Origin: an uncultured Gammaproteobacteria bacterium
Lineage (GTDB): Bacteria; Patescibacteriota; Patescibacteriia; UBA9934
NCBI GenBank assembly: GCA_964452565.1
Contig: CAYVLY010000001.1
Location: 224,351-288,350, forward strand
Reading direction: 5' to 3'
Length of the DNA stretch: 64,000 nt
A program made the translations under genes and the position numbers. The first letter of the stretch is position 1; the number at the start of each line of letters is the position of its first letter. Below the pieces are notes generated by a model. It did not search any database. It was not told the origin of the DNA and saw only the letters and a program-made list of their open reading frames with translations. This document shows, piece after piece, positions 4,905 through 48,057 of the stretch.

Positions 4905-4981
4905 ATTATCAGGTTGAACTATTTCTGAAAGCATGAATGCCGCCCTAGGCCATAGGCCCTGGACGGCGTGAGTTTCGCGTT

Positions 4982-7261
4982 TTACTTCCCTTCTTCACGC
5001 TCCTGAGCGAGCGCTAGGACTACGGTACGCATGGCTGTGTGCAGATCTCGCTGGCGCCGCGCCTCAGCAGTTTCCCTTTCGAGACGCTCGACTTCAGCAC
5101 GTGCCCTTGCGAGTTTCTCATCCTTGCGTGAGACCAACTGTTCGGCCTGCCTCGCTATGATTTGGATCTGCCTGCGGACTCCTTCCTCCATCAACGGTCC
5201 AAGCGTCTGCTCGAGCACAGTTGCAACCGGCCCTTCGACATCCCCTACCCGAATCCTAGGCTTAGAGACCTGGACCCGAGTTGCCGCATGTGATGCGCTC
5301 TCATCGATGAGCCTGGGCATTTCACTTTGCAGACATGCCCGTACAGCTGCTTCGATTGCCTCAGTCGGCACTTCAGGCTCAGGCACCTGGATCTGCTCAA
5401 GACGTGCGGCAAGTAGCTCATCAAGCAAGCCCCTTCCCTGCTCTCCGAGCAGAAATTCTTCAAGATGACCGCGAAGCGCCTCTCCTGACGGCTTCGCAAG
5501 TTCCAGCTCAGCCGGAGGATCTTCCGACGTAGCTACCATAGGCGAATTGCCAACAGGTGGTGCTACATCTTCGGCTGGAGCCACGGACGACTCAGGCGGA
5601 GGCGCCGGAGGATCACTGGAATCATCATCTGCTGGCGCCGGGGCTTCAGGCTCTTGCGCGGCCTGTGGGATTTCCCAGGCTTCCAGGTCGATAAGCTTCT
5701 CATGAACTACGCTAGCAGCCAGCTCGCTGATCGTACAACCGACACGTGATATGAGATCACGTATTACCTGTCGGTCATATGGCTTTTCTGGATTTCTATG
5801 CGGTACCAGGTTGACACCTAGCACGATACGCCAAACCGTACGGTGACGCGCAATCTGACCCAGCTTCTCCAGTAGCCCAACCTTCATCATAGCGTTGAGC
5901 GCCGCCGATGCGTTTTTCTGATTAGGCCATACATACCTGATCACTGATACTGCCAGCTCGGTTGGTAAACGCGCCGTGGATGGCCACCCGTGTTCCTTGA
6001 TCAGAATCAGAATCATGAGTTGCATCATTTCATATGCAGTTTTCGTGAACCCACTGACTTTGATAGAATCTTGCCCATCCGGATCCACTGGATCCTCGGA
6101 TGGCTCAGGCGGAGGCAGATCGTTGGCAGGCGGTGCTGCACCCTCAACGGGACTCGCGAGAGGCTCGAGCTGATCATCAGCCGGGTCCTCAGGCGTGGGC
6201 GGCGGAGGGTCACTAGGACCATCATCTTCCGGCGGAGGCGGATCGTCAGCTGGCTCTGAACCAGCAGGCGGCGCATCCTCGGGCGCATCCTCGGGTGCCG
6301 GCGGCGCAGGCTGATCGGCAGGCTCTTCAACCGGAGGCTCTTCTGGCTGCTTGCCAGGCGTCACCGGCTCTTCCCAATCCTCAACAAACAAAACGCCTCG
6401 ATCAACAGTCTGTTCTCCCATGGCACGTACCCGGTCGTCACTATAGACACCCAGGAATCCCCGAATGTCTGCCTCGCTGAACTCGACTTCTGGTCTGTAC
6501 TTCGGGATAAGACGTTTCCCGGGCAGGACACGCTGAATAGACAACCCACCCGAAGCACAACCAATTGGCTCAGTTAGGCTCTTTTGCTTCATGCCATCCA
6601 AGGGGACTCCTGGATTACCCGTCCTCGGATAGCAATAGCCCAAAATGTCATGCATGAACCTACTCGGGAGACGGGTAGCCGTAGGCCAATCGTATTCCGC
6701 AATCAGGATCGCAAGCATGAGTTGCATCATCTCGTAGGCCGACTTGACTGCCCCACTGACGACGATAGGCAGCTCTTTCTCCGCCTCAGGAAGATCCTCA
6801 GGCGGCTGATCAGCCGGTGGTTCCTCAGGTGGCGCTGGATCTTCAAGCGGAGGGTCACTAGGACCATCGTCTGCCGGTGGAGCCGGTGGTTCCTCAGGAT
6901 CATCAACTGGCGGCACCGGATCTGCTGGCGGCAAATACCGCGGGTCCTGCTTCAACTCATAACCATTGATGCGCGACTGCGCATCAGCGGCCTCGAGAAC
7001 CTGTACAATCACTGCTGGATCGATCGATCCGTCCAGATCAATGACCGTAACGTAGTTTGTGGCCCAATGTCTGAAACGCCTTACCAGCTGTCTTGGAATA
7101 TCATTACCACCTGCTTCTACCCATTTCAGGTATGCTCTCCATGTTCGCGGAGCGCCATCGTGTTTCAAAGCCTTCTCGAGCATGAAACCATAGCTCCAGC
7201 TGTTACGGCTCTGGATAGCGCGCTTGGTCTGCTCGGTCAGCTCGATTTCTGTCGTAGTCAT
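4982..7261 (-). CDS. hypothetical 760-aa protein with two homologous internal domains separated by Pro/Asp/Glu-rich low-complexity linkers, C-terminal coiled coil; GC-rich
   Basis: Long ORF at about 62% GC. The repeat is seen as VSGAVKSAYEMMQLMLAILIAEYDWPTATRLP versus VSGFTKTAYEMMQLMILILIKEHGWPSTARLP. The start at ATG 7261 (MTTTEIE) is chosen because a terminator hairpin at 7287-7320 separates it from the sigma gene. Confidence 0.55.
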   Translation of the reverse strand: MTTTEIELTEQTKRAIQSRNSWSYGFMLEKALKHDGAPRTWRAYLKWVEAGGNDIPRQLVRRFRHWATNYVTVIDLDGSIDPAVIVQVLEAADAQSRINGYELKQDPRYLPPADPVPPVDDPEEPPAPPADDGPSDPPLEDPAPPEEPPADQPPEDLPEAEKELPIVVSGAVKSAYEMMQLMLAILIAEYDWPTATRLPSRFMHDILGYCYPRTGNPGVPLDGMKQKSLTEPIGCASGGLSIQRVLPGKRLIPKYRPEVEFSEADIRGFLGVYSDDRVRAMGEQTVDRGVLFVEDWEEPVTPGKQPEEPPVEEPADQPAPPAPEDAPEDAPPAGSEPADDPPPPEDDGPSDPPPPTPEDPADDQLEPLASPVEGAAPPANDLPPPEPSEDPVDPDGQDSIKVSGFTKTAYEMMQLMILILIKEHGWPSTARLPTELAVSVIRYVWPNQKNASAALNAMMKVGLLEKLGQIARHRTVWRIVLGVNLVPHRNPEKPYDRQVIRDLISRVGCTISELAASVVHEKLIDLEAWEIPQAAQEPEAPAPADDDSSDPPAPPPESSVAPAEDVAPPVGNSPMVATSEDPPAELELAKPSGEALRGHLEEFLLGEQGRGLLDELLAARLEQIQVPEPEVPTEAIEAAVRACLQSEMPRLIDESASHAATRVQVSKPRIRVGDVEGPVATVLEQTLGPLMEEGVRRQIQIIARQAEQLVSRKDEKLARARAEVERLERETAEARRQRDLHTAMRTVVLALAQEREEGK

Positions 7262-7286
7262 CTCTCGCTCCGTTCGTTTTGGAAGT

Positions 7287-7320
7287 AAAAACGCTCTGCT
7301 TTCGCAGTGCGTTTTTTTAC
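7287..7320. terminator. intrinsic terminator hairpin (AAAAACGCTCTGC-TTTC-GCAGTGCGTTTTTTT) downstream of the ECF sigma gene on the minus strand
   Basis: Inverted repeat flanked by A/T runs on both sides. Confidence 0.5.
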
Positions 7321-7342
7321 CATTTTTATTACATTTCGTCAA

Positions 7343-8218
7343 TCAAGACTCTAATTCTGCTAGCCTCTTTTTTGCAGCAGCTAACTCTTCCTCTGCCTGC
7401 TTTAATTCCTTATCATTGAGCTCTATCTGGTCATCCAGTGCTGATATTAATTCCCCCAAGAAAGCCAGATACGCATCATCCCCCCTCAATTCAGCCTCTT
7501 GCTGCTCAAGCTCCTGTTCTGCCACCTCTGGTTCTTCCACTTCCTCAACTTCAGGCTCTTTGATCGATTCTTCGGCAACTGATGACTCTGGTTTTATAAG
7601 TCCAGCCTCCAAGGCCTCGGGTTGCAATAATCTCTTAAGCCTTTCTCTAGCATAGTACAAACGAGACATAACCGTACCTTCTGGAATATCCATTATCTCT
7701 GCAATTTCTTTATAGGCACGACCCTGGACTTCGCGCAATATAATAACTTGCCTTTGCTGTGGTGATAATTGACTCATTGCCCATTGAATCCTCTCTCCCA
7801 ACTCCTTTCCATGTACCTGATCGAAAGGCTGGTCAGGTCTTGTGTGTAAATCCCCTTCAATCTCAGTATCAATACGTTCATCAAACTCGGATGCTTGCCT
7901 TTTTTGCAGCCTACGAATCTCATCTATCGTTGCATTTATTGCGATTCTGTAAATCCAGGTTGAGAATGAAGCATCTTTTCGAAATCCACCAATATTTTTA
8001 TAAGCCTTTAGCATTACGTCCTGAGTAAGATCCTCTGCCTTTGCCCTATCTTTAATCATTCCAACAATATGAGCATAAATACGCCCACGATAAAGCTTTT
8101 GAAGCTCTTCCCAGGCCTTATGCTTCTCGTGTTCACTGCCTGATTCTTGAAGGATCGCAATTAGCTCCTTCTCTTGCGGATCCATCTCTCTTGGCTCTGT
8201 TTTTTCTCCCTTAGTCAT
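7343..8218 (-). CDS. ECF-type RNA polymerase sigma factor with about 100-aa acidic coiled-coil C-terminal extension
   Basis: Sigma-70 region 2 (DLTQDVMLKAY ... FSTWIYRIAINATIDEIR) and region 4 (YKEIAEIMDIPEGTVMSRLYYARERLK). Paralogous to the GC-rich sigma at 29314-29961. Confidence 0.8.
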   Translation of the reverse strand: MTKGEKTEPREMDPQEKELIAILQESGSEHEKHKAWEELQKLYRGRIYAHIVGMIKDRAKAEDLTQDVMLKAYKNIGGFRKDASFSTWIYRIAINATIDEIRRLQKRQASEFDERIDTEIEGDLHTRPDQPFDQVHGKELGERIQWAMSQLSPQQRQVIILREVQGRAYKEIAEIMDIPEGTVMSRLYYARERLKRLLQPEALEAGLIKPESSVAEESIKEPEVEEVEEPEVAEQELEQQEAELRGDDAYLAFLGELISALDDQIELNDKELKQAEEELAAAKKRLAELES

Positions 8219-8219
8219 A

Positions 8220-9683
8220 TTAACTTAATAAATCGATCGCATTATTTATCCTCTCAATTCCCTTTTCCTTTCCAAAAACCCACAAAAGTTCAAATGGTGA
8301 CGCAGACTTAGCAGCGCCAGAAAGAGCTACACGTAAAGGCCACAAGACATTACCGTTTTGCAGATCATTCTTTTCGATATAACCGCGCACTTCCCTTTCG
8401 ACCTCCTCAACATTTACAAAGTGCGCATCTTCCAGTGATTTGATAAACTCCTTGACCCCTTCAAGCTGAGCCTTGGCATCAGCCGCATCTGCCTTTTTCC
8501 AAACAAGAATCTCAGGATCATACTCAAACTCAGCGACATATGGCTCAAGCTTATCTTGAAGCTCATCTAATCGATTCACGCGCTCGCGTTCGACCACTAG
8601 AGCCCTCCTGATCATTTCATTATCAAGATCTACACTGACAAATGATCTTGCAACCTCTACAACCTCTTTAACCTCTAATTCTTTTATATACTGATTATTC
8701 ATCCAATCCAACTTTTCTATGTTCATCACGGCCCCGCTCTTTTTAACCTTGGAAAGATCGAATAGTTTGATGAGCTCATCAAAAGTATAAATCTCCCGAT
8801 CCCCTGTTGGGTTAAAGCCGAGCGTGCCAATGAAGTTTAAAAGCGCCTCAGGTAGATATCCTTTTTTGAGATAATCCTCAACAGCTACATCTCCTTGCCG
8901 CTTTGAAAGCTTTGTTTTATCAGGATTCAAAAGCAGTGGCACATGTGCAAACGTTGGCATATCAAATCCAAGCATGTTATAGAGCATTATGTGCTTTGGT
9001 GTTGATGAAAGCCACTCTTCACCGCGGATGATATGCGTAATCTTCATGAGCGCATCATCAACAACAACTGCTAGATGATAAGTTGGAAAGCCGTCAGACT
9101 TGAGAATCACCTGATCATCAACATCTTCATTTTTGAACTTGACCTTTCCACGCACAACATCCTCAAATACAGTCTCACCCTCAGGAACCTTCATACGCAC
9201 AACATGGGACTCGCCAGCATCGATCTTTGCTTTAACATTATCATCTGATAAGTCGCAACAGTGCCGATCATACTTTGGAGTTTGCTTTGTGGCACGCTGC
9301 TTCTCGCGCATCTCATCAAGTCGTTCTTTTGTACAGAAACAAAAGTATGCGTCGCCTTGTTCGATCAGCTTATCGATATACGGCTTGTAAATGTCGAGCC
9401 GCTTAGACTGAACATATGGGCCATGCTCGCCTTTTTCAATTATTGATCCATCTTCTTGTAAAACAGGACCCTCGTCAGGTTCAATCCCTACATCTTTAAA
9501 GGTCTTGAGGAGATTCTCAAGCGCACCTTCGACCTCACGGGTCTGGTCAGTGTCTTCGATTCGAAGTACAAACTGCCCGCCAGTCTGCTTTGCGAGAAAA
9601 TAATCAAAGAGCGCTGTGCGGAGCGTTCCGATATGAATATATCCTGTTGGACTAGGAGCCAATCTTGTTCGTGCTGGGGTCAT
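8220..9683 (-). CDS. gltX: glutamyl-tRNA synthetase
   Basis: HIGH-type motif PSPTGYIHIG, KMSK-type LSKRQG, 487 aa. Confidence 0.9.
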   Translation of the reverse strand: MTPARTRLAPSPTGYIHIGTLRTALFDYFLAKQTGGQFVLRIEDTDQTREVEGALENLLKTFKDVGIEPDEGPVLQEDGSIIEKGEHGPYVQSKRLDIYKPYIDKLIEQGDAYFCFCTKERLDEMREKQRATKQTPKYDRHCCDLSDDNVKAKIDAGESHVVRMKVPEGETVFEDVVRGKVKFKNEDVDDQVILKSDGFPTYHLAVVVDDALMKITHIIRGEEWLSSTPKHIMLYNMLGFDMPTFAHVPLLLNPDKTKLSKRQGDVAVEDYLKKGYLPEALLNFIGTLGFNPTGDREIYTFDELIKLFDLSKVKKSGAVMNIEKLDWMNNQYIKELEVKEVVEVARSFVSVDLDNEMIRRALVVERERVNRLDELQDKLEPYVAEFEYDPEILVWKKADAADAKAQLEGVKEFIKSLEDAHFVNVEEVEREVRGYIEKNDLQNGNVLWPLRVALSGAAKSASPFELLWVFGKEKGIERINNAIDLLS

Positions 9684-10610: not shown

Positions 10611-11021
10611 TTAGCGTCGCCAGAATGCGATAAGTGCGATTACTCCTCCGAGCAGATCCATTACAAAATCCATCATAGTATCTGCAATGCTTGGCTGATG
10701 CTTGAGCTCAATAGCCTTTGGAAAGATCTCATCAAGTAGAAACTCGTGCAGTTCCCATAGGATTCCAATTAGGGATACAAAACCAAGAACTATTCCTGGA
10801 ATCAACCACCAACTCAGGTGCTTTTGAAACCAACCCTTGAACTTCACATCATCTACACCCTCATTCCAAATCGCCAACCCGAGTGCACCCATGGCAAATC
10901 CCCCACCAATGTGCATTGGTATGTCATACCAATCAAGAATGTCGTAAAGCCCAAATAAGAGCCCCACAAAGTGAAAGACTAATACAATGGCAATAACCAA
11001 AAAAGCTTTTTTTAGTGTCAT
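10611..11021 (-). CDS. hypothetical small integral membrane protein
   Basis: 136-aa ORF with 3-4 hydrophobic helices, AT-rich codon usage like the backbone. Confidence 0.45.
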   Translation of the reverse strand: MTLKKAFLVIAIVLVFHFVGLLFGLYDILDWYDIPMHIGGGFAMGALGLAIWNEGVDDVKFKGWFQKHLSWWLIPGIVLGFVSLIGILWELHEFLLDEIFPKAIELKHQPSIADTMMDFVMDLLGGVIALIAFWRR

Positions 11022-11140: not shown

Positions 11141-11183
11141 AGTTGACGAAACTTAATTAGCACTCTATACTTGGGAGTGCTAA
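11141..11183 (+). promoter_or_regulatory. sigma-70-like promoter (TTGACG-N17-TATACT) overlapped by a perfect CIRCE element TTAGCACTC-N9-GAGTGCTAA (HrcA operator) for clpB
   Basis: CIRCE consensus matched 18/18 at 11157-11183. The -10 hexamer lies inside the spacer. Confidence 0.75.
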
Positions 11184-13880: not shown

Positions 13881-14436
13881 CTTGACACATTTTCACCCAA
13901 ATGCTTTAATATCTTCACGTCCATTTTGGCTAAGAGGAGTCCCAGCGAGTGCCGCGTCACCAGGAGGTACGCGCCGCGCGTCGGAAAGCTGCAATCCTGC
14001 AGTAGTCGACACTGGCCTTTGAAGCCAGCAGCAACCAAAGCTCAAGGGATCGAGATAGCGACCGAGCCTCTTCTCAGCCAGGCTGCGGGGTAAAAGCAAA
14101 CAAGCTGATACCACCACAAACCCGGAGAGTCCTGGTTCCCAGGACGCAGACTACGGAGGACGGTGAGTCCCAACATGCGCGGTCTGACCGGTTCCTCGTC
14201 ACGTTCACCCCCATGGGTCCCTGTTCGTGGAGAAGTCGTGTGCGGTGAGGAAATTCGCATCTTCACCACCCCGCAGCCATCCTTTTCTCGTAAATCCTTC
14301 GTGGCATCTTCCCTGCCATCGCCAGCCTCCTCGCCTGAGGTCGACGCCACGTGGGTACAGAGCCACCTTTGCCTCGCACTGGTGGCTCTCTACTTTTTGG
14401 CGCTAAACAGCTAGCGTCTATTTTTTATAAAAAGAT

Positions 14437-14457
14437 ACCAACGTTTAACGTTGGTAG
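14437..14457 (-). terminator. 21-bp perfect palindrome TACCAACGTTTAACGTTGGTA followed on the minus strand by a U-run; identical copy at 62118-62138
   Basis: Identical sequence plus similar flanks (ATAAAAA) at two loci, each downstream of a minus-strand gene. Confidence 0.5.
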
Positions 14458-14682
14458 TGCAGGTACCACATCTTATTGAAATCCGCAACTGTGGATAACA
14501 CGTCCAGAACCCGGTGCTGGACTTGATTTATAAAAGCGAAACTCCTTTATTTATAAGATATTCTTTCCAAGGTTGAACCTTGAGTATTAGAGCTAATAAA
14601 ATAAGGATAAGCGAAACCCCCGCAGCGCGTAGCGTGCAGGGGTCACGGAAGAAGGGTTGAAGAAGGGGCGCGGGGCGTGGGA

Positions 14683-15189
14683 CTAGTCGTTGTCGATGTC
14701 GAGCCCGTTGTTGCGGACCCAGAAGTTGTCAACGTCTTCGTCTTCCCACTGGATCACCAGGACATCGCCCTGGGGCACCTCGTCGGAGAACATGATCTGG
14801 GGCGGCCCGTTGTCGAAGGCTACCTCACCCATGCACTCAGCGTCGAAGTGGCTGGGAACGCCGTAGAACAGGATATCCGCGTAGACGCCGTCCGTGTAGA
14901 CATCGCCCACCTGGCTGAACTCAGTCTCCCCATCATCGAAGATGCAGGTGACTTCCATCGAGCTCACGGTATAGCCCTGGTCGGCGAACTTCGAGTCCCA
15001 CATGATCCACACGGCATCGTCGGTCGTGCCGTAGTAGCTGCCACCGTTGCCGAGGCCGACATCGATGTCGCAGTCCCAGACGCCGTCCGCATTGTAGCCA
15101 CATGAGGCACCGCCAAACTCGAAGCACCCGGGGGTAGCGACGGTGGACAGGGCGAGGACAGCGGCGAGCAGGGTGTTGATCTTGGTCAT
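14683..15189 (-). CDS. hypothetical secreted Cys-containing protein (signal peptide, possible lipobox ATPGC); GC-rich
   Basis: RBS GGAGGAG upstream, N-terminal hydrophobic signal, acidic mature domain. The overlapping plus-strand ORF is judged spurious. Confidence 0.5.
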   Translation of the reverse strand: MTKINTLLAAVLALSTVATPGCFEFGGASCGYNADGVWDCDIDVGLGNGGSYYGTTDDAVWIMWDSKFADQGYTVSSMEVTCIFDDGETEFSQVGDVYTDGVYADILFYGVPSHFDAECMGEVAFDNGPPQIMFSDEVPQGDVLVIQWEDEDVDNFWVRNNGLDIDND

Positions 15190-15270
15190 TTTCTCTCATC
15201 TCCTCCTCGCCGCAGCGAGGCTGTTGGGGTCACTGGTGCGTCATGGTCGAAAGGTTCGACTCACATACGC

Positions 15271-15340
15271 TCCTATAGCATAGGAAAAAGTGGAGTGAGA
15301 GATATTTAAGGTGCGCTCTTTCCTATGCTTTAGGAGTGCT
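15271..15340. promoter_or_regulatory. two related palindromic boxes (TCCTATAGCATAGGA and TCCTATGCTTTAGGAG) about 45 bp apart upstream of the secreted-protein gene
   Basis: Box 1 is a perfect palindrome (CCTAT-AGC-ATAGG). Box 2 is the inverted near-copy. Confidence 0.4.
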
Positions 15341-15430
15341 ATGAGCTACTCTCAGATTTCGATGCTTGATCGAAGTCTGGGTGTAGCCCACCCGACGAGA
15401 TGCCGGGATGGGCGAATGAGAAAGGTGAGG

Positions 15431-15697
15431 CTAGCGGCGCCACTTGCGGAAGAGCCGGGTGCGCTTGAGTGCCTCGCGGATTCCGAGCTCGCGGCTGTTC
15501 TCAAAGTTCCTGACGGCCATGACCTGACCTTGCCGGATCTTTTCGAGTCGGCCGAGCTCGTTGCGGATGGCCGCGTTCAGCTCGTCGAGCTGGCTGCGAA
15601 GCCCTCTTGAGAGCTGCATGGGGCTGCCGTGACCAGGCAGGCTCACCCTTGCAGTCGTAGTGTAGAGAGCGACGAGCGTTGTTTCGATGCCTTTCAT
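15431..15697 (-). CDS. hypothetical 88-aa protein (GC-rich island)
   Basis: GGAG RBS 6 nt upstream of the ATG. No recognisable motif. Confidence 0.3.
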   Translation of the reverse strand: MKGIETTLVALYTTTARVSLPGHGSPMQLSRGLRSQLDELNAAIRNELGRLEKIRQGQVMAVRNFENSRELGIREALKRTRLFRKWRR

Positions 15698-15842
15698 GTC
15701 ATCTCCAAACTACCCTTGAGGCAGCTGGTGTTAGGGAGCGTTGTGCTTCCCACCAAAGGTCTCGATACTATTCAAGCTCTTTGGTGGGCCCACTCGATCG
15801 AGGATCGAGTGGGACGAGGAAGGAGGGGGAAGGAAGAAGGTG

Positions 15843-16007
15843 CTACATCAGGGCCTTGACCGCGGCGTCGAGCACGTGGCTGTGCTTGGTGCTGCCGACG
15901 AGGGCGAGCCACGCGATGGGGGCGATCATCAGTCCAGCAACGGCCAGGCCGCTCTGGATGGTGTGAGCCTTCATGCGGACGTGGAAGAGGACGGTATCGA
16001 GGGTCAT
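15843..16007 (-). CDS. hypothetical 54-aa single-pass membrane peptide (not in the ORF track, below its 60-aa cutoff)
   Basis: AAGGAG RBS 7 nt upstream of the ATG at 16007. The ORF encodes MTLDTVLFHVRMKAHTIQSGLAVAGLMIAPIAWLALVGSTKHSHVLDAAVKALM. Confidence 0.3.
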   Translation of the reverse strand: MTLDTVLFHVRMKAHTIQSGLAVAGLMIAPIAWLALVGSTKHSHVLDAAVKALM

Positions 16008-16460
16008 GGTGTTCTCCTTGGAGGGTCGAGTGTTTCAATCTGGCTAGATTACTATCTATTCAGGTTGAAGCACTCGACTACCTATAAAGAAAACCGCCTG
16101 AGTTTCTCGAAAATTGAGAGAACCAGGCGGTTTCCTACCACTCAGTAGATCCTTCGACTCGGCCTTTGGCCTCGCTCAGGATGACGAGTGATTTGCTTCT
16201 TTACCCAGAAGCTTGGGCTCTCTCTAGTTGTAATGTTCTGATCAAATCTGCCTTGCGACTCCTTGATCTTTACATGTAGTACTATAGCACAAAATGACAA
16301 GTTTGTCAAGAGCTGAGGCTGGATTTTGGGCTAAAATTGGCATATATTCTATAGGTAGTAGTAAGTAGGTAGTAGGCAGTAGATGGGCAGCCAATACATA
16401 CCCGGACTTATCTACTTATTACTTCCTACTACCCACTACCTGCGCTATAATAAGGCCACT

Positions 16461-21759: not shown

Positions 21760-21863
21760 AGCTGGTACAATAGTTGACAGATTAGCATTTCCATGCTAAT
21801 CTTCTTTGTTCTTTGAAACACAGGTGGGTAATTCTATTCAACCGCGTACGGAAGGAGAACTCC

Positions 21864-22322
21864 ATGAAACGCACCCTCACCCTGATCGTAATCCTGGCCA
21901 TTCTGGCCGCCCTGACCGGCTGTCCTAAGCAGACGCCCCCGGTGGTCTACAGCGTAGTGCCGGAAGTGACCAACGTCGAGCAAGCCGAGATCTCGCACCA
22001 CGACTACAATTGGGTGATCTTCGGTGCCGATAGTGTCACTATCGATCTGATCACCGAGAGCAGCTTCATGCCTCACACGGGCCAGCTTCACGAAGGCGTA
22101 CAATTCAATGACCAGTACTGGGTTATCCCCACGAACCTGAGCTCTGATCTGATCTACGAGATCCGCTGGAACGGATACGAACTAACCGCCAAGGATCATG
22201 ACGGCAAGTGGCTGTGTGTGGACCTCTGGGGTTGGTCCACAGACGGCGAGACCAAGCTCGCTGGTCCCAACGTCTACGGCCTGGTCTACGTCATCACCGA
22301 CGACATCGACAAATGCCAGTAG
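21864..22322 (+). CDS. hypothetical lipoprotein (GC-rich); signal peptide MKRTLTLIVILAILAALTGC
   Basis: Strong RBS GGAAGGAGAACTCC-ATG. Lipobox LTGC. The N-terminus is near-identical to the lipoprotein at 49096. Confidence 0.55.
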   Translation: MKRTLTLIVILAILAALTGCPKQTPPVVYSVVPEVTNVEQAEISHHDYNWVIFGADSVTIDLITESSFMPHTGQLHEGVQFNDQYWVIPTNLSSDLIYEIRWNGYELTAKDHDGKWLCVDLWGWSTDGETKLAGPNVYGLVYVITDDIDKCQ

Positions 22323-22371
22323 GCCATAGTTCATCTCGATCGTACTGGCGAAGAAACACAATCTTCGCCAC

Positions 22372-28062: not shown

Positions 28063-28164
28063 AAAGTACAACTATAATAGCGAAAATTGGGCTAAAAAGC
28101 AAAACGCTCCGCACCTCGAGGGGTACAGAACGTGGGACGAGCCAGAATGACAGAGTGTGCATGA

Positions 28165-28458
28165 TCAATCTCCACACGTGAGACGCGGCCTGACGAATTC
28201 TCTGAGCATTTCGTCGACTTCCAACCTATGAAGGAGTACCTTAGCCTGAGCTGTCAATTCCGTAACTCTCGCGATTTCGATCATACCCTGGCTATCCAGA
28301 GGTTCGCCAGGACGATCAGCCCGGTCAAGATAGGAGCCCTTACCATGGCACAGCGGGCACTCCGAGTCTGGCGCCTGCGGAATATACAAATCGGTCAAAG
28401 CTATCGTGCAAAAGCATGTCACACGCACCAGCCGATAGCGACCGTGTTCGTCAAGCAT
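28165..28458 (-). CDS. hypothetical zinc-ribbon protein (CxC...CxxC), GC-rich; possible anti-sigma partner
   Basis: AAGGAG RBS. Cysteine pattern VTCFC ... CPLCHG. Lies downstream of an ECF sigma gene but separated from it by a terminator hairpin. Confidence 0.35.
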   Translation of the reverse strand: MLDEHGRYRLVRVTCFCTIALTDLYIPQAPDSECPLCHGKGSYLDRADRPGEPLDSQGMIEIARVTELTAQAKVLLHRLEVDEMLREFVRPRLTCGD

Positions 28459-28585
28459 CCTTTTTCTCCTTGAAATGGTTCATTTTCAAGATAGCACACG
28501 GATCTTATAAAGCAAAACGCCCGGTACCATTCGGTAACCGGGCAGACCCGCACTGGTCGGTGTGGGCGTACGATACAGCGAACTC

Positions 28586-29155
28586 CTACCTGACTTCGTC
28601 CTCACGCTCGATTACAACCTTGGCTCTCTTACGAGCTCGGAATATGCGGTTCATCACCGTACCCAGGGGAAGTCCAAGCATTTCTGCAATCTCACGACAT
28701 TTGAGTTCATCATAAGAATACATACATAGAACCTGCCAATATATCGGGTTGTGATGGCTCATTTCTCGCTTCACCTGATGTAGGAGCTGCTGACTACGAG
28801 TTGCCCTTTCCTGGTCTGGGCTCTCATCCTCGAGCTGCCCAACAGCTTCAGCGCTAGTGCATTTATCCCAACGCACATTACGTCGATAGATATCAATGGC
28901 AATCCTTTGAGCAATAGTGCGAGCCCAGGGGCCGAACGGGCGTCTGGGATCATAGCTGCCAATACCCATCAGTATCTTGAGACATGTGACCTGCGCTACA
29001 TCTTGTGCGGATGGTGGATCACCAAGAATCTTCATGGCAATCTTGAACGCAAACGGCCAGGTGATGGTCAATACACGCTCCATGGCCTCTTTATCACCAG
29101 CCTTCGCCCTTGCGGCCAACTCCCTACTGACGAGCATTCCATTCCCCACGCGCAC
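28586..29155 (-). CDS. ECF-type RNA polymerase sigma factor (GC-rich island)
   Basis: Region 2 (DVAQVTCLKIL ... FGPWARTIAQRIAIDIYRR) and region 4 (YDELKCREIAEMLGLPLGTVMNRIFRARKR). Confidence 0.8.
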   Translation of the reverse strand: MRVGNGMLVSRELAARAKAGDKEAMERVLTITWPFAFKIAMKILGDPPSAQDVAQVTCLKILMGIGSYDPRRPFGPWARTIAQRIAIDIYRRNVRWDKCTSAEAVGQLEDESPDQERATRSQQLLHQVKREMSHHNPIYWQVLCMYSYDELKCREIAEMLGLPLGTVMNRIFRARKRAKVVIEREDEVR

Positions 29156-29313
29156 ACCGCCTCTCTCAGACTTGGTTAATGTTTTCTTTGAAGGGGTTGA
29201 AAAGACCGTATATTAAAAAACCGCCTATGTCAACAATAGAATTTGAAGCCAAAAAGCAAAGAACCGCGCCTCAAGGGACGCGGAACGTAAAATGACGCGA
29301 GAGGATCAGGACG

Positions 29314-29961
29314 CTACCTCAGATCCCTCAGGATCTGCTGCAGCCGCTTGCGGGCGTAGAAGAGCCGACTCATGACATCGCCCTCAGGGATATCCATGGC
29401 CTGGGCGATCTCCTTGTACGAGAACCCTTCGATCTCGCGCAGCAGGACCACTTGACGCTGCTGAGGACTGAGCTGCTGCAGGGCCTGTGCAATTCTGCGC
29501 ATGAGCTCAGCTCGTTGCTGATCTCGCCCCGGACTGCGGTGCAGATGATCAGGGTCCAGGAGTGAATCATCAACTCCGTCACTACCGATACGCTCATCGA
29601 ATTCGCTGGTCTTGACCCGGCTGTGCTTGCGGATGTAGTCGATAGTGACGTTCGAGGCGATCCGGTAAAGCCAGGTGTTGAATGAAGCCTCGAGCCTGAA
29701 TCCGCTGATGTTGCAATAGGCCTTTGCGAAGGTCTCCTGGACCAGATCACGAGCATCCTCGCGGTTGCGAATCATGCCATAGATGTGAGCGTAGATCCGA
29801 CCCTGGAAGCGATCAACCAGAACACGAAATAGCTCTAGCTCACCGCCTTGAATCCGCTCGACCAGCTGTCTGTCACCCAGTTCATCATATTGCTGCATCA
29901 GCTGCCTGCGCAGGCCTGCACACTCTCCTAGCACCTCGTCAGTGGATTCTTCGTCTTTCAT
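29314..29961 (-). CDS. ECF-type RNA polymerase sigma factor, GC-rich paralog of the sigma at 7343-8218
   Basis: Aligns along its length with the 7343 sigma (GRIYAHIxGMI ... SFxTWxYRIA ... SEFDERI ... LSPQQRQVxxLREIxG ... YKEIAxxMDIPEGxVMSRLxYARxRL). Start at ATG 29961 has a GAGGAGAG RBS. Confidence 0.8.
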   Translation of the reverse strand: MKDEESTDEVLGECAGLRRQLMQQYDELGDRQLVERIQGGELELFRVLVDRFQGRIYAHIYGMIRNREDARDLVQETFAKAYCNISGFRLEASFNTWLYRIASNVTIDYIRKHSRVKTSEFDERIGSDGVDDSLLDPDHLHRSPGRDQQRAELMRRIAQALQQLSPQQRQVVLLREIEGFSYKEIAQAMDIPEGDVMSRLFYARKRLQQILRDLR

Positions 29962-30050
29962 GTGCTCTCCTCTCGAGCCTCGGGTTGTACAATGGGACAC
30001 CCCAGATTAGCACAGAAAGGTGGGATTGTCAATGATACGATCAGATCCGA

Positions 30051-30088
30051 GACAACCCCCTCTATCTCCCCCTTCGAAAGGGGGAGCC
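30051..30088. repeat. GC-rich palindromic element unit (reverse orientation) upstream of the sigma gene
   Basis: GACAACCCCCTCTATCTCCCCCTTCGAAAGGGGGAGCC. Confidence 0.7.
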
Positions 30089-30147
30089 TTGTTTAAACGA
30101 AAAAACCGGCCGTATAACGACTGGTTTTTGCTTGTGTTTTGATCAAA

Positions 30148-43027: not shown

Positions 43028-43129
43028 AACTTCTGGTGCGATTATCGCAGGAATCTTGATTATTCTCAACTATTACGCTACTCTCCGTGCAGTTAGTCCG
43101 CCCCATCCCCAACCTCTCATGGAGCATTC

Positions 43130-43747
43130 ATGTCTGATTCAGAACCCCCTCCCATACCCAGCGTGAAACTGCCCTATCGAGTTCACGAGGGTGAAAATCT
43201 CGGGAACACTGAGCAACGCAAGGCTGGAAAGCTCAAAAGCATCGTGGTCGACTCAACACTTGGCCTTATGCTTGGAACTCATTTTGCAAACCTGGACGCA
43301 CAAGTCCTCAACAAGCAAGATGAAGGACGCCTCAAGAATCGCTGCTTTCCAATTGGCGATCTCGCAATAGAAGGAGCAAGTCTCAACGGCACTGGTAGCG
43401 TGCACATGATCTTTGGAGAAAATGTGGCGCACTGCGTCATTGCGGGCATAGCCATCGAACGCGTTGTGATCAACTACGAGACTGGCATGACCTGGCGCGA
43501 GCTAGCCTGGCGCCTCAATGGCTATGCCCGCTACAGAATCGATGTCATCTGGGAAGCTGCCCGTGAGGCTGGCGCCCCGTTCCCCGGACACGAAGAAGAC
43601 CCCAATCCTCCTGCTCCAGAACCTGAGCCTGGTCCTAACTACATCGAACGGCTTTCGAGCAAGTCACCGCCACCCATTCAAGCCAGCTCCCCTATGCCTG
43701 GCCCGAGCGATGGTAAGCGGGAGCTCCCAGTCCTACTTCACGTATAG
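43130..43747 (+). CDS. hypothetical protein with Pro-rich C-terminus (GC-rich island)
   Basis: GGAG RBS, high GC3, terminator hairpin CCGTCCCGA...TCGGGACGG at about 43770-43810. Confidence 0.4.
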   Translation: MSDSEPPPIPSVKLPYRVHEGENLGNTEQRKAGKLKSIVVDSTLGLMLGTHFANLDAQVLNKQDEGRLKNRCFPIGDLAIEGASLNGTGSVHMIFGENVAHCVIAGIAIERVVINYETGMTWRELAWRLNGYARYRIDVIWEAAREAGAPFPGHEEDPNPPAPEPEPGPNYIERLSSKSPPPIQASSPMPGPSDGKRELPVLLHV

Positions 43748-43849
43748 CGACTGACCGGTCTAGCTGCAGCCCGTCTAACGTCCGTCCCGACACTCTCGGG
43801 ACGGTTCATGCTTTTAAAAACCAACAACTTGATCTATACTCGCCACACT

Positions 43850-45861: not shown

Positions 45862-45890
45862 TTGACGCGATCTTTTTTCCGTGTTACAAA
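45862..45890 (+). promoter_or_regulatory. sigma-70-like promoter TTGACG-N17-TACAAA for the tandem small-protein family
   Basis: Same architecture as the promoter at 57541-57569. Confidence 0.45.
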
Positions 45891-45924
45891 GATTGCCACA
45901 CTTCAGTGGAACGGAGAAATCTCA

Positions 45925-46257
45925 ATGCTCTCTGACAATCTCATGCTCGCGCGTATGCAGCGACACGGACTCGCTGGCAGAATCCCACACGAAACCAAAG
46001 GCACAATCCAAGCGCTCGTCGCGCTTCGTCGTCCCCCTGGCCTACACCGTCTGCGCACTACTGCAAGACGTACGATCAAACTCTTCACCCTGGGTCGCAT
46101 GGGCCACAGGGACGACGGGCGCTACGGCCGAGTCTACGCTGCCAAGCGCAACTGCATTCGAGCCAAGATCCCGTCCGGGGTCATCGAGGGCGTCTTCCCA
46201 GAGGGCCCGAGCTGCTCAGAGATCGCCTGGCAGGAGATCTTCGTAGGCCTTTGGTAG
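45925..46257 (+). CDS. hypothetical small protein, family member A (motifs ALVALRRPP ... VFPEGPS)
   Basis: GGAGAAATCTCA-ATG RBS. Shares motifs with the two downstream paralogs. Confidence 0.45.
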   Translation: MLSDNLMLARMQRHGLAGRIPHETKGTIQALVALRRPPGLHRLRTTARRTIKLFTLGRMGHRDDGRYGRVYAAKRNCIRAKIPSGVIEGVFPEGPSCSEIAWQEIFVGLW

Positions 46258-46309
46258 AGGTCACAGAACACCTTCAAGCCTTCAACCGGCAACCCGGGAA
46301 AGGAGAACG

Positions 46310-46759
46310 ATGGACTACAGAAAACACCATATGCAAGATCGGCACCACGTAGTGCCACCAAGCCAGATGCTGCGGCGTGCACATCGTCTGCTCGCGCATA
46401 GCGATGAACAAAACGCCGTACTCGTAGCAGACAGAAACCTACGCGCCCTGGTCAAGATGAGACGTCCGCGCAAAGGACACTGGCTGAGCGACAGAGTCAC
46501 GATCCTGTGCGAAGGCCTCGGCCTGGAGGATCCTGACGAAACGCGGGGGGAGGAGATCGGGGCGCTCAAGCTCGCCTGCCAAGAAGCTGGTATGGCACCC
46601 TGGGCCATCAACCACGTCTTCCCGGAATGTCCGATGGATGTCGATGAGCCGATAGAAGAGCCCGACGCCAGGCGCATCGGCCCAATCGAGCGCCTCCGCC
46701 TCGCCAAGCTGCGTTTCTGGATGGCAGTCGACAATAGCTTCGGCCCCACCACCTCATGA
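46310..46759 (+). CDS. hypothetical small protein, family member B (ALVKMRRPR ... VFPECP)
   Basis: AAAGGAGAACG-ATG RBS. Followed by the hairpin ACGACCACCCTTCTCGGGTGGTCGC. Confidence 0.45.
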   Translation: MDYRKHHMQDRHHVVPPSQMLRRAHRLLAHSDEQNAVLVADRNLRALVKMRRPRKGHWLSDRVTILCEGLGLEDPDETRGEEIGALKLACQEAGMAPWAINHVFPECPMDVDEPIEEPDARRIGPIERLRLAKLRFWMAVDNSFGPTTS

Positions 46760-46776
46760 TCGCACCACGTTTCCTC

Positions 46777-46801
46777 ACGACCACCCTTCTCGGGTGGTCG
46801 C
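46777..46801 (+). terminator. hairpin ACGACCACCCTTCTCGGGTGGTCGC; identical 25-nt copy at 47391-47415
   Basis: Exact duplicate after members B and C of the tandem family. Confidence 0.55.
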
Positions 46802-46879
46802 CATACTTCAAGGTTGACTGGGCCCGACTTTCGTGCTATAACTTTCAACCACCCTAGTAGATCAATCAAGGAGGCCCTC

Positions 46880-47359
46880 TTGGTCACCCTCTACAAATTC
46901 ATGCCCCAGGTGGAATTCGCAACCCCAATGCACCAGCGCATCTATGACTGCTGGAACGATGGGCGCATTCCACAGACACAGCAGGCAGCGAAGGCCATAG
47001 GCGCACTCTACAGGTTGCGCCGAACCACGCGCCTGCGCTGTGTACGCGACTGGATCACAGAATGGATCGATACCGCCTTCGAGCAGAGCCCCAACGAAGC
47101 GCTGATGGCCCGACGCAACGCAGTCAGAGATGCCAAGGCAGCATGTGCCAAGGCCGGTATCCCGCTCGAGGTCATCGACTGCATCTTCCCAGAAGGCCCA
47201 AGCGCCCTGAATGCGAAGAGCTACGGAAGGCAGGTGGACATCGAGCCTGAGCAGCAGACTAGGCAGGCTGCCGAAGAACCGCGCCGCAGTATCTTCCAGC
47301 GATTCCACCTCTGGCGCGAACGCCAGCGCCACGCTACGCACATGGATGGCACCCGCTGA
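46880..47359 (+). CDS. hypothetical small protein, family member C (ALYRLRRTT ... IFPEGPS)
   Basis: AGGAGG 5 nt upstream of the TTG at 46880. Shares motifs with A and B. Confidence 0.4.
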   Translation: MVTLYKFMPQVEFATPMHQRIYDCWNDGRIPQTQQAAKAIGALYRLRRTTRLRCVRDWITEWIDTAFEQSPNEALMARRNAVRDAKAACAKAGIPLEVIDCIFPEGPSALNAKSYGRQVDIEPEQQTRQAAEEPRRSIFQRFHLWRERQRHATHMDGTR

Positions 47360-47527
47360 CCTTGTCCTGACCCTCGAGTCAAGGACAGCTACGACCACCC
47401 TTCTCGGGTGGTCGCTTGCTTTCTAACCAATGGTTTACAGTCTATAATAAATGTGATAGCTTCTAAGGCCCCTTCAACCCCCAACGAGCCCAATCGTAGA
47501 TCCGTCGATGGGCTTGGAGAACATAAA

Positions 47528-47923
47528 ATGAGCATGTTCGAAGAATGCCTCAAAAACACCTACTTCAACGTATCAGCGCTGATCGTAACCTTCTTCGTAA
47601 CCCGTATCATCCCCGCAAGCGACCCCTCTGGCTTCATGAGCAGCTCCATGAACACAAAGGGAATGTACTTGATTATGTACATTGGGGTCATCATCATGGT
47701 CGCAGCCGCATTCAACAAGGAAAAATCGAGACTCACATACGCATGCGCTGGAGTGGGTCTAGGACTCTGCTTCCCAATTGTGGGTAACATGCTATTCAGT
47801 GGCATGTTCATCGCCTTGCTGGCCAACGCAGCCATCGTGGTCATCATGATCGTGGCAGCAAACATCGTGGAATACAAGATGGACGAGATAGCCTACATCG
47901 AGCGTCCAGACGACTTCTACTAG
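47528..47923 (+). CDS. hypothetical small membrane protein
   Basis: ATG at 47528 (MSMFEECL), 3-4 TM helices, terminator GCGCCCCGCACTTGGGGCGC + T-run after the stop. Confidence 0.45.
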   Translation: MSMFEECLKNTYFNVSALIVTFFVTRIIPASDPSGFMSSSMNTKGMYLIMYIGVIIMVAAAFNKEKSRLTYACAGVGLGLCFPIVGNMLFSGMFIALLANAAIVVIMIVAANIVEYKMDEIAYIERPDDFY

Positions 47924-47973
47924 CCCTCGCTACTCCGCAACCGTCGCGCCCCGCACTTGGGGCGCTTGTGCTT

Positions 47974-48004
47974 TTATCCATAGCGAGGTCCAACCTCCAG
48001 GAGG
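47974..48004. other. 31-bp perfect inverted repeat CGAGGTCCAACCTCC-A-GGAGGTTGGACCTCG upstream of era
   Basis: 15-bp perfect arms with a 1-nt spacer. Confidence 0.5.
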
Positions 48005-48057
48005 TTGGACCTCGGAACAAAACTTCTGTATCCTGCCTACTGTATACTATTACCACT

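Follow-up and report, generated by a model that had tools for sequence, protein, structure and literature searches.

An extracytoplasmic function sigma factor with a predicted acidic, coiled-coil tail in an Uhrbacteria-like bacterium, and its GC-rich relative

A 64,000-nt stretch of the 709,517-bp contig CAYVLY010000001.1 (assembly GCA_964452565.1; hereafter the window) encodes an extracytoplasmic function (ECF) sigma factor, SigA, which continues beyond region 4 with a long acidic extension, as well as a GC-rich relative, SigB. The locus raises the questions of whether this extension is a genuine part of the sigma factor, what it might do, and how the two sigma factors are related. The tail of SigA is real, selected and rare, being known from two lineages. 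As to its use, pairing of its long helix with a helix of another protein is tentatively favoured below, and SigB appears as a later import from a high-GC donor. Coordinates of all features are compiled in Table 1.

SigA is a bona fide functional ECF (group IV) sigma factor of the RpoE/AlgU/SigW-like type. In addition to sigma regions 2 and 4, the protein matched the sigma70-ECF model TIGR02937 (NCBIfam) with 112 bits (cutoff 42.9). Neither Pfam nor NCBIfam returned a match to the sigma r1 or r3 domains, i.e., regions 1.1 and 3 are absent, and this domain content places SigA in group IV of the sigma-70 family. Region 4 retains the family-invariant residues G181, V183-L187, A190 and R191. Best matches of the core fold in the PDB (Foldseek) were AlgU, SigH, SigW and RpoE (E = 1.5e-9 to 1e-7, ~190 aligned columns). 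Every specific equivalog model of NCBIfam scored SigA far under its curated cutoff (RpoE TIGR02939, 113.5 vs 236; SigW TIGR02948, 108.7 vs 243; PRK12513, 131 vs 206).

An earlier note on this DNA had considered that the extension might be a separate open reading frame (ORF) joined to the sigma factor by a frameshift. This is ruled out, since sigA forms one uninterrupted frame of 291 codons, the protein from an independent assembly (P0001) is 100 % identical, and an ortholog of likewise 291 aa carries the same tail. Furthermore, Logan assemblies of two single sequencing runs matched the window at 100 % over 11.5 kb containing sigA and its GC-rich neighbour, and at 100 % over 19 kb covering sigB, sigC and the flanking ribosomal genes. 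These matches rule out a chimera as the source of the AT/GC mosaic and a sequencing frameshift as the source of the tail.

The ~93 residues following region 4 of SigA consist to 32 % of Asp and Glu and carry a net charge of -22 (-13 in the orthologous tail). An AlphaFold2 model was based on an alignment of 64 sequences, which is thin over the tail (mean predicted local distance difference test score, pLDDT, 85.8; predicted template modelling score, pTM, 0.45). In this model, sigma2 and sigma4 are confidently folded (pLDDT >90), residues 205-233 are disordered, and the remainder of the tail is predicted to be helical. The long helix comprises six uninterrupted heptads (residues 251-289) with L251, I258, I265, L272, L279 and L286 in the a positions and L254, L261, N268, A275, A282 and L289 in the d positions. 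Thus, 12 consecutive a/d positions are hydrophobic save one central Asn, and the ortholog keeps this pattern with an Asp at that site. The repeat is longer than the at least four uninterrupted heptads with hydrophobic a/d positions that were taken to define a coiled coil, and the predicted long helix carries the canonical signature of such a structure. A Glu-rich helical tail had been attributed to the AT-rich sigma factor only, and indeed the 93-aa acidic tail is confined to SigA, SigB ending directly after region 4.

Only one close relative spans the full length of SigA, namely P0002, a syntenic ortholog of 291 aa (49 % identity) encoded on an 82-kb contig of a sister genome. Its gene order is that found at sigA, i.e., ClpB followed divergently by DUF2238, WecG, gltX, the sigma factor, an unassigned protein and an M23 peptidase. 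Identity between the two proteins amounts to ~52 % in the core, 31 % in the acidic linker and 53 % in the helical module, the latter sharing the motifs EAELRxDDxYLxFLxxLISAL and AAKKxLxELES. The nonsynonymous divergence (dN) is 0.38 for the module and 0.29–0.31 for sigma2/sigma4, with synonymous divergence (dS) being saturated; a low dN at saturated synonymous sites points to purifying selection on the tail module. When a HMMER profile of SigA and P0002 was run against 1.84 billion protein representatives, only P0001 and P0002 matched beyond position ~250, the next profile match (183 bits) ending at profile position ~204. A search of viral contigs with the full-length sigma alignment yielded no tail-bearing but only tail-less relatives, and scans of metagenome contigs with the tail alignment and with an alignment of the downstream protein gave no match, these scans also missing known JGI (Joint Genome Institute) contigs. 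Other members of the broad subfamily carry unrelated C-terminal additions, e.g., extra sigma4-like helix-turn-helix domains or charged tails, so that appending material after region 4 seems to be recurrent in this subfamily. Within the candidate phyla radiation (CPR), SigA itself has become fixed in one narrow lineage, Uhrbacteria-like bacteria with small genomes.

Between the gltX stop codon and the sigA start codon lies a gap of 1 nt in the window and of 6 nt in the sister genome. Because of this close spacing, sigA appears in both genomes to be expressed as the last member of a housekeeping operon. No recognisable anti-sigma gene was detected by Pfam and NCBIfam in the vicinity, which comprises gltX, WecG, DUF2238, a 759-aa protein of no assigned family and an M23 peptidase. 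The 80-nt spacer downstream of sigA (window 7262-7342; 10877-10953 on the sister contig L002) is identical between the two genomes at 54/64 positions, compared with ~68 % identity at the 3' end of gltX. It harbours a sigma-70-type extended -10 promoter, a type represented by 7 sites in the window vs 0.3 expected from shuffles, and a hairpin with folding z-scores of -2.7 in the window and -3.4 in the sister genome, where the base changes strengthen rather than disrupt the stem. Judged from these features, the hairpin likely terminates the gltX-sigA transcript. Promoter and terminator overlap in a compact, conserved manner: transcription of the downstream gene is expected to start within the 5' arm of the hairpin that would terminate the upstream unit. 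A downstream-gene transcript starting there would escape termination.

The 759-aa protein encoded downstream is composed of an N-terminal domain, two copies of a ~135-aa domain (6364-6769 and 5665-6070), Pro/Glu/Asp-rich linkers in between, and a C-terminal coiled coil (about 4985-5191). Its homolog after the sigma factor in the sister genome has 300 aa and one domain copy; the domains are 38 % identical, and the C-terminal 67 aa, as the best-conserved part, reach 61 %. Because of this conserved C-terminal coiled coil and because it stays beside the sigma factor despite remodelling, the protein is the most obvious candidate for a partner of SigA. A homolog search with the 759-aa protein scored no match, low-complexity candidates probably having swamped the search, and no relatives were found in viral contigs. 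The repeated domain was modelled at a pLDDT of 51 with meaningless Foldseek matches, and a PDB search with the domain profile returned noise only. The domain looks like a winged helix by eye, a likeness that is not claimed in view of this pLDDT and these matches. An architecture resembling sigA plus its neighbour is displayed by P0235 (L095 5844-7355, GCA_964645815.1), a 503-aa ECF sigma factor with 40 % identity to the SigA core and a 300-aa GC-rich extension that contains an acidic linker, with a coiled coil at its C-terminus, on a contig of 45 % GC. It was considered as a Rosetta-stone fusion of the sigma factor and the downstream protein and rejected (hhalign 0.2 %, shuffle z <=2.8, one 13-residue motif only).

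With its start codon abutting the housekeeping gene gltX, SigA would be made constitutively. Constitutive synthesis together with the lack of a recognisable anti-sigma gene nearby suggests that post-translational control is needed, and the tail may represent the module for such control and for docking. One may envisage that the flexible polyacidic linker tethers the six-heptad amphipathic helix, which would pair with another helix and thereby gate how SigA reaches RNA polymerase or DNA. As the partner helix, the conserved C-terminal coiled coil of the adjoining 759-aa protein would be the best candidate, and since the latter gene has its own promoter, the partner level could be set independently. 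Such intermolecular pairing, with this coiled coil as the favoured partner, is put forward tentatively and ranks first among the explanations considered. The heptads argue for pairing with a helix about as long, and the sigma core offers none. While the anatomy, conservation and rarity of the tail, the gene order and the xenology of SigB are shown, a role of the tail in regulation, its partner and the sign of the control (positive or negative) are inferred.

Several observations weigh against pairing with the 759-aa protein. Modelling the extension docked on the core had been suggested, and the helices were indeed predicted, but a pTM of 0.45 supports no arrangement of the tail relative to sigma2/sigma4. 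With two tail-bearing lineages only, covariation is not measurable. Due to the terminator-like hairpin between them, sigA and the 759-aa gene are probably not co-transcribed, unlike classical sigma/anti-sigma pairs, and their adjacency is weak evidence, as both genomes are syntenic across the whole region. Finally, the proposed inspection of neighbouring upstream regions for cognate AAC...CGT-type motifs disclosed no target promoter of SigA: all matches but one to ECF-type promoters (AAC-N16-18-CGT, GAACTT...TCTGA) lie inside genes, and the sole intergenic candidate, located upstream of the sister sigma factor, is not conserved in the window.

Instead of a separate protein, the tail could engage its own sigma factor. 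Such intramolecular autoinhibition, which we consider possible though rather unlikely, would involve folding of the helix onto the core-binding surfaces of sigma2/sigma4 or shielding of the DNA-binding face of sigma4 by the linker, comparable to region 1.1 of primary sigma factors and to the logic of ECF41, with release by a signal or by proteolysis. It would agree with (i) the lack of an anti-sigma gene nearby, (ii) the typical property of ECF extensions to replace anti-sigma factors and to contact the core domains (PMC7826278, PMC8999054), (iii) the existence of two-helix anti-sigma factors, complexes of NepR and CnrY being among the structural neighbours of the core, (iv) the tail net charge of -22 beside a basic sigma4 helix, and (v) the motif YLxFLxxLISAL with its broad conserved hydrophobic face. 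However, the pTM of 0.45 and the 30-residue disordered linker support no docked state, and the tail shares no similarity with anti-sigma domains, including the N-termini of the membrane proteins from the SigB donor clade described below (z <1, hhalign 0.2 %). For a docking helix, moreover, six regular heptads are less typical than for an intermolecular coiled coil.

Regular heptads would also suit a tail that drives homo-oligomerisation, e.g., in a storage form or for bridging two holoenzymes, or one that serves localisation, in each case with no dedicated partner; this appears improbable. In its favour, the heptad repeat places a buried polar residue (Asn/Asp) at the central core position, a feature of dimeric leucine zippers, but the acidic e/g positions D262, D269, E271, E276 and E278 disfavour a parallel homodimer. 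To our knowledge, there is no precedent of an ECF sigma factor dimerising via a C-terminal zipper. The terms "dimer" and "coiled" are absent from a review of ECF sigma factors (PMC8999054). That the tail is a functionless read-through, a leftover of gene fusion (e.g., with an ancestral anti-sigma factor) or a misassembled or frameshifted ORF could be argued from its confinement to two lineages and the low complexity of the linker. Yet the tail is identical in independent assemblies, its length, heptads and 53 % of the module residues are preserved in an ortholog with saturated synonymous sites, and similarity to the donor-clade anti-sigma N-termini is not detectable. A functionless or artefactual tail is thus essentially excluded.

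The relationship of SigA to SigB had been left open as that of paralogs or xenologs. As previously noticed, both proteins align along their cores (55 % identity over 161 aa, E = 5e-59), and mutual similarity and a neighbour-joining tree assign them to one broad subfamily, which speaks against unrelated ECF groups. The reported contrast between an AT-rich and a GC-rich gene was reproduced, the exact GC contents of 43 % for sigA and 56 % for sigB being slightly lower than the ~45 % and ~60 % given before. The suggested comparison of GC contents at third codon positions (GC3) yielded 0.38 for sigA vs 0.66 for sigB, with the housekeeping genes of the window ranging at ~0.30–0.45. The identity of 55 %, and each protein being among the other's closest relatives within this genome, could indicate recent in-genome paralogs with a merely local GC difference. 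But the closest relatives of SigB are sigma factors of 235–238 aa from genomes of ~70 % GC (70–72 % identity by BLASTP, 67–71 % over the trimmed core columns of the tree). SigB nests within this high-GC clade, whereas SigA and P0002 form a separate long branch with 44–49 % identity to it. Furthermore, the slot flanked by rpsI and the polysaccharide-synthase gene, which holds sigB, sigC and a 97-aa gene in the window, is filled by a 172-aa PaaX_M-like gene in the sister genome, on the 82-kb contig that also encodes P0002; sigA has been retained there. GC3 differs markedly despite similar amino-acid sequences. In-genome paralogy of SigA and SigB is essentially excluded.

Judging by tree position, composition and the differently filled slot, SigB is a xenolog that entered a variable cargo slot at a later time, the donor being a high-GC, Myxococcota-like clade. 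Genomes of this donor clade include GCA_046766335.1. At two sampled loci of this clade (69–70 % GC, sigma GC3 0.87–0.90), the gene order is PolA, sigma factor, a single-pass membrane protein of ~445 aa showing anti-sigma-like features, and a protein of ~165 aa. The membrane protein after the sigma factor (L089 8799-10139, L092 3751-5082, L009 10689-11606) displays an N-terminal LLxRCE...AT motif and no Pfam match, and such proteins likely constitute an uncharacterised anti-sigma family. SigB arrived without this membrane anti-sigma partner of the donor clade. SigA may have come from the same broad subfamily, either through vertical descent or through a transfer of much earlier date.

A protein identical to SigB, with the same neighbours, was found in an independent assembly (P0017). 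The third ECF sigma factor reported beside the GC-rich copy was verified as SigC by its matches to both sigma regions. Of the adjoining zinc-ribbon protein, the 97-aa protein with its Cys motifs is present, but the zinc ribbon itself is plausible and unproven, with no Pfam match. Terminator-like repeats follow sigC and the 97-aa gene; together with the own promoter of sigB they suggest that the SigB island consists of separate, host-adapted transcription units. The island (28100-30120) gave no plasmid match, and no flanking repeats suggesting site-specific insertion were found around it. A PHROG scan, which left out SigB, assigned no family to eight island proteins and only a generic sigma family to SigC.

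Table 1 Features of the window, with positions counted from its first nucleotide
Feature	Position	Strand	Characteristics
sigA	7343..8218	-	Single ORF; encodes ECF sigma factor of 291 aa, C-terminally extended; stop codon at 7343-7345
Sigma region 2 of SigA	7901..8095	-	Residues 42-106; Pfam PF04542 (Sigma70_r2), 60.8 bits, E = 1.1e-16; pLDDT >90
Sigma region 4 of SigA	7637..7792	-	Residues 143-194; Pfam PF08281 (Sigma70_r4_2), 60.4 bits, E = 1.3e-16
Acidic disordered linker of tail	7520..7624	-	Residues 199-233; net charge -10; pLDDT <50 at 215-230; 11/35 residues identical to P0002
Helical module of tail	7346..7519	-	Residues 234-291; predicted helices 234-246 and 248-290 (43-residue heptad helix), pLDDT 88-96; 31/58 residues identical to P0002
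gltX	8220..9683	-	Glutamyl-tRNA synthetase; Pfam tRNA-synt_1c, E = 4.5e-108
Sigma-70-type extended -10 promoter	7314..7342	-	TTGACG-N14-TGGTAAAAA; begins right after sigA stop; conserved in sister genome
Hairpin with GNRA loop	7287..7311	-	CGCACTGC-GAAA-GCAGAGCG + T5; likely intrinsic terminator of gltX-sigA unit
759-aa protein gene	4982..7261	-	GC-rich, GC3 0.52; no Pfam, NCBIfam or PHROG match
sigB	29314..29961 (frame to 30000)	-	215-aa ECF sigma factor, tail-less
sigB promoter	30004..30032	-	Sigma-70-type extended -10; TTGACA-N14-TGCTAATCT
sigC	28586..29155	-	189 aa; Pfam r2 and r4; TIGR02937, 82 bits; 30 % identical to SigA; GC3 0.52
97-aa protein gene	28165..28458	-	Cys 15, 17, 34 and 37 (CxC...CxxCH; CPLCHGKG); no Pfam, NCBIfam or PHROG family
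Larger GC-rich segments	4925-7250, 13925-16195, 21851-22338, 28120-30119, 43100-43841, 45911-48010, 49069-50661, 51751-52593, 57012-58119

The gene content of the window comprises peptidoglycan synthesis (MurF, PBP2, MurJ), ClpB, PriA, DusB and a ribosomal operon. The IF-1 protein falls into one 90 %-identity cluster with a protein of a "Candidatus Uhrbacteria bacterium" and with that of the sister genome, and this single short marker suggests the host to be an Uhrbacteria-like bacterium of the CPR (Patescibacteria). The divergent intergenic region of clpB and DUF2238 contains a perfect CIRCE operator, TTAGCACTC-N9-GAGTGCTAA, at 11157-11183, which is conserved in the sister genome and implies heat-shock control of clpB of the HrcA type. 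At 53344-54765, a beta-CASP/MBL nuclease is encoded; its best NCBIfam match is "type VII CRISPR-associated Cas14" (402 bits, cutoff 800), with aCPSF1 also matching, and it is probably an RNase J/CPSF-like enzyme.

Thirteen GC-rich segments of at least 250 bp account for ~22 % of the window (mean 55.6 % GC vs 42.7 % elsewhere). They are situated between syntenic housekeeping genes, and several possess a host-type promoter of their own (TTGACA-N14-TGnTA). In the sister genome, other genes, some of them GC-elevated, occupy the slots rpsI/polysaccharide synthase and MurJ/alaS. Apart from the two sigma factors, none of the 11 island ORFs scanned with Pfam gave a match; the scanned island ORFs have a GC3 of 0.52–0.85. 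Three tandem GC-rich ORFs at 45862-47359 look paralogous, with the motifs RRP(R/P)... and V(I/F)PE(G/C)P(S/M) near the C-terminus and no family match. Small GC-rich predicted lipoproteins (GC3 0.77–0.85) with near-identical signal peptides and lipoboxes, MKRTL...L(T/V)GCPKQ, are encoded at 21864-22322 and 49096-49440 (also 14683-15189), a strong sigma-70-type promoter preceding those at 21.8 kb and 49.1 kb. This GC-rich cargo mosaic is arguably the more unusual feature of the window.

According to a wider reading, which we regard as distinctly improbable, the tail and the adjacent, independently transcribed protein would form an undescribed soluble sigma-control pair of CPR bacteria, and the GC-rich, promoter-equipped orphan genes, including the sigma factor of the Myxococcota-like donor, would record gene flow from the hosts of an episymbiont. 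If the two proteins did form such a pair, the coiled coil fused to the sigma factor would be captured or set free by the coiled coil at the C-terminus of the other partner, a modular GC-rich "cargo" protein. SigB provides a concrete, datable case of the import of a regulatory gene from a high-GC donor into a streamlined genome. In case of SigA, the tail occurs in a CPR bacterium, a group in which transcriptional regulation is almost unstudied. Signalling by ECF sigma factors that carry fused regulatory extensions is recognised, with only a handful of extension types elucidated so far (SnoaL, TPR, Cys-rich, fused anti-sigma). An extension composed of a polyacidic linker and a coiled coil would add a different physical principle, i.e., partner pairing or charge shielding instead of ligand or metal sensing. 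Its practical weight is limited, since only two lineages are known to carry the tail, whose function is putative.

C-terminal extensions represent the second commonest mode of ECF regulation and usually go with a missing anti-sigma factor (PMC7826278, PMC8999054), and neither of these publications, the ECF classification and the review, mentions a coiled-coil extension in its main text. Residues 199-291 of SigA matched no Pfam domain at E up to 0.01 (no SnoaL, TPR or zf-HC2), a PDB sequence search with the tail profile returned noise only and no relative, and the tail contains neither a cysteine nor a hydrophobic span. The earlier note had judged the tail to be unlike the ECF41/42 extensions, which the lack of SnoaL and TPR matches bears out. 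ECF41, ECF56, ECF294 and ECF295 possess a SnoaL-like extension, whereas the SigA tail is predicted to be a linker followed by two helices and not an alpha+beta barrel. ECF42 carries tetratricopeptide repeats, differing from the one short and one long helix of SigA, and the extensions of ECF238 (CorE), ECF287 and ECF288 are Cys-rich. The fused anti-sigma domains of the zf-HC2/RskA type or transmembrane helices of ECF48/52/53 and ECF263 are absent from the SigA tail, as is the DUF1835 element known from other ECF extensions.

Among systems with a separate anti-sigma factor, RpoE, AlgU, SigW and SigH (with RseA, MucA, RsiW and RshA, respectively) provide the best structural or profile matches to the SigA core. 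SigA differs from these pairs by the lack of an anti-sigma gene nearby, the presence of the tail and scores below the equivalog cutoffs. The closest relatives of SigB, in contrast, follow the pattern of RpoE-type sigma factor plus membrane anti-sigma factor, with a single-pass anti-sigma-like gene downstream. No similarity of the SigA tail to any known anti-sigma domain was found, and its derivation by fusion from the N-terminus of a donor-clade anti-sigma factor was rejected (z <1, hhalign probability 0.2 %). The two-helix anti-sigma factors NepR and CnrY and the coiled-coil anti-sigma factor RsiG employ short helical elements that bind sigma2 and sigma4, to which the tail can be likened by analogy only: NepR and CnrY complexes occur among the Foldseek matches of the SigA core, yet they are separate proteins with no sequence similarity to the tail. 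With other ECF sigma factors bearing a C-terminal extension, SigA shares the minimal sigma2-sigma4 core, a fused extension of >50 aa and the lack of a recognisable adjoining anti-sigma gene. Its tail is thus best filed not as a new kind of system but as an additional extension type within the known class of ECF sigma factors bearing regulatory extensions at their C-terminus.

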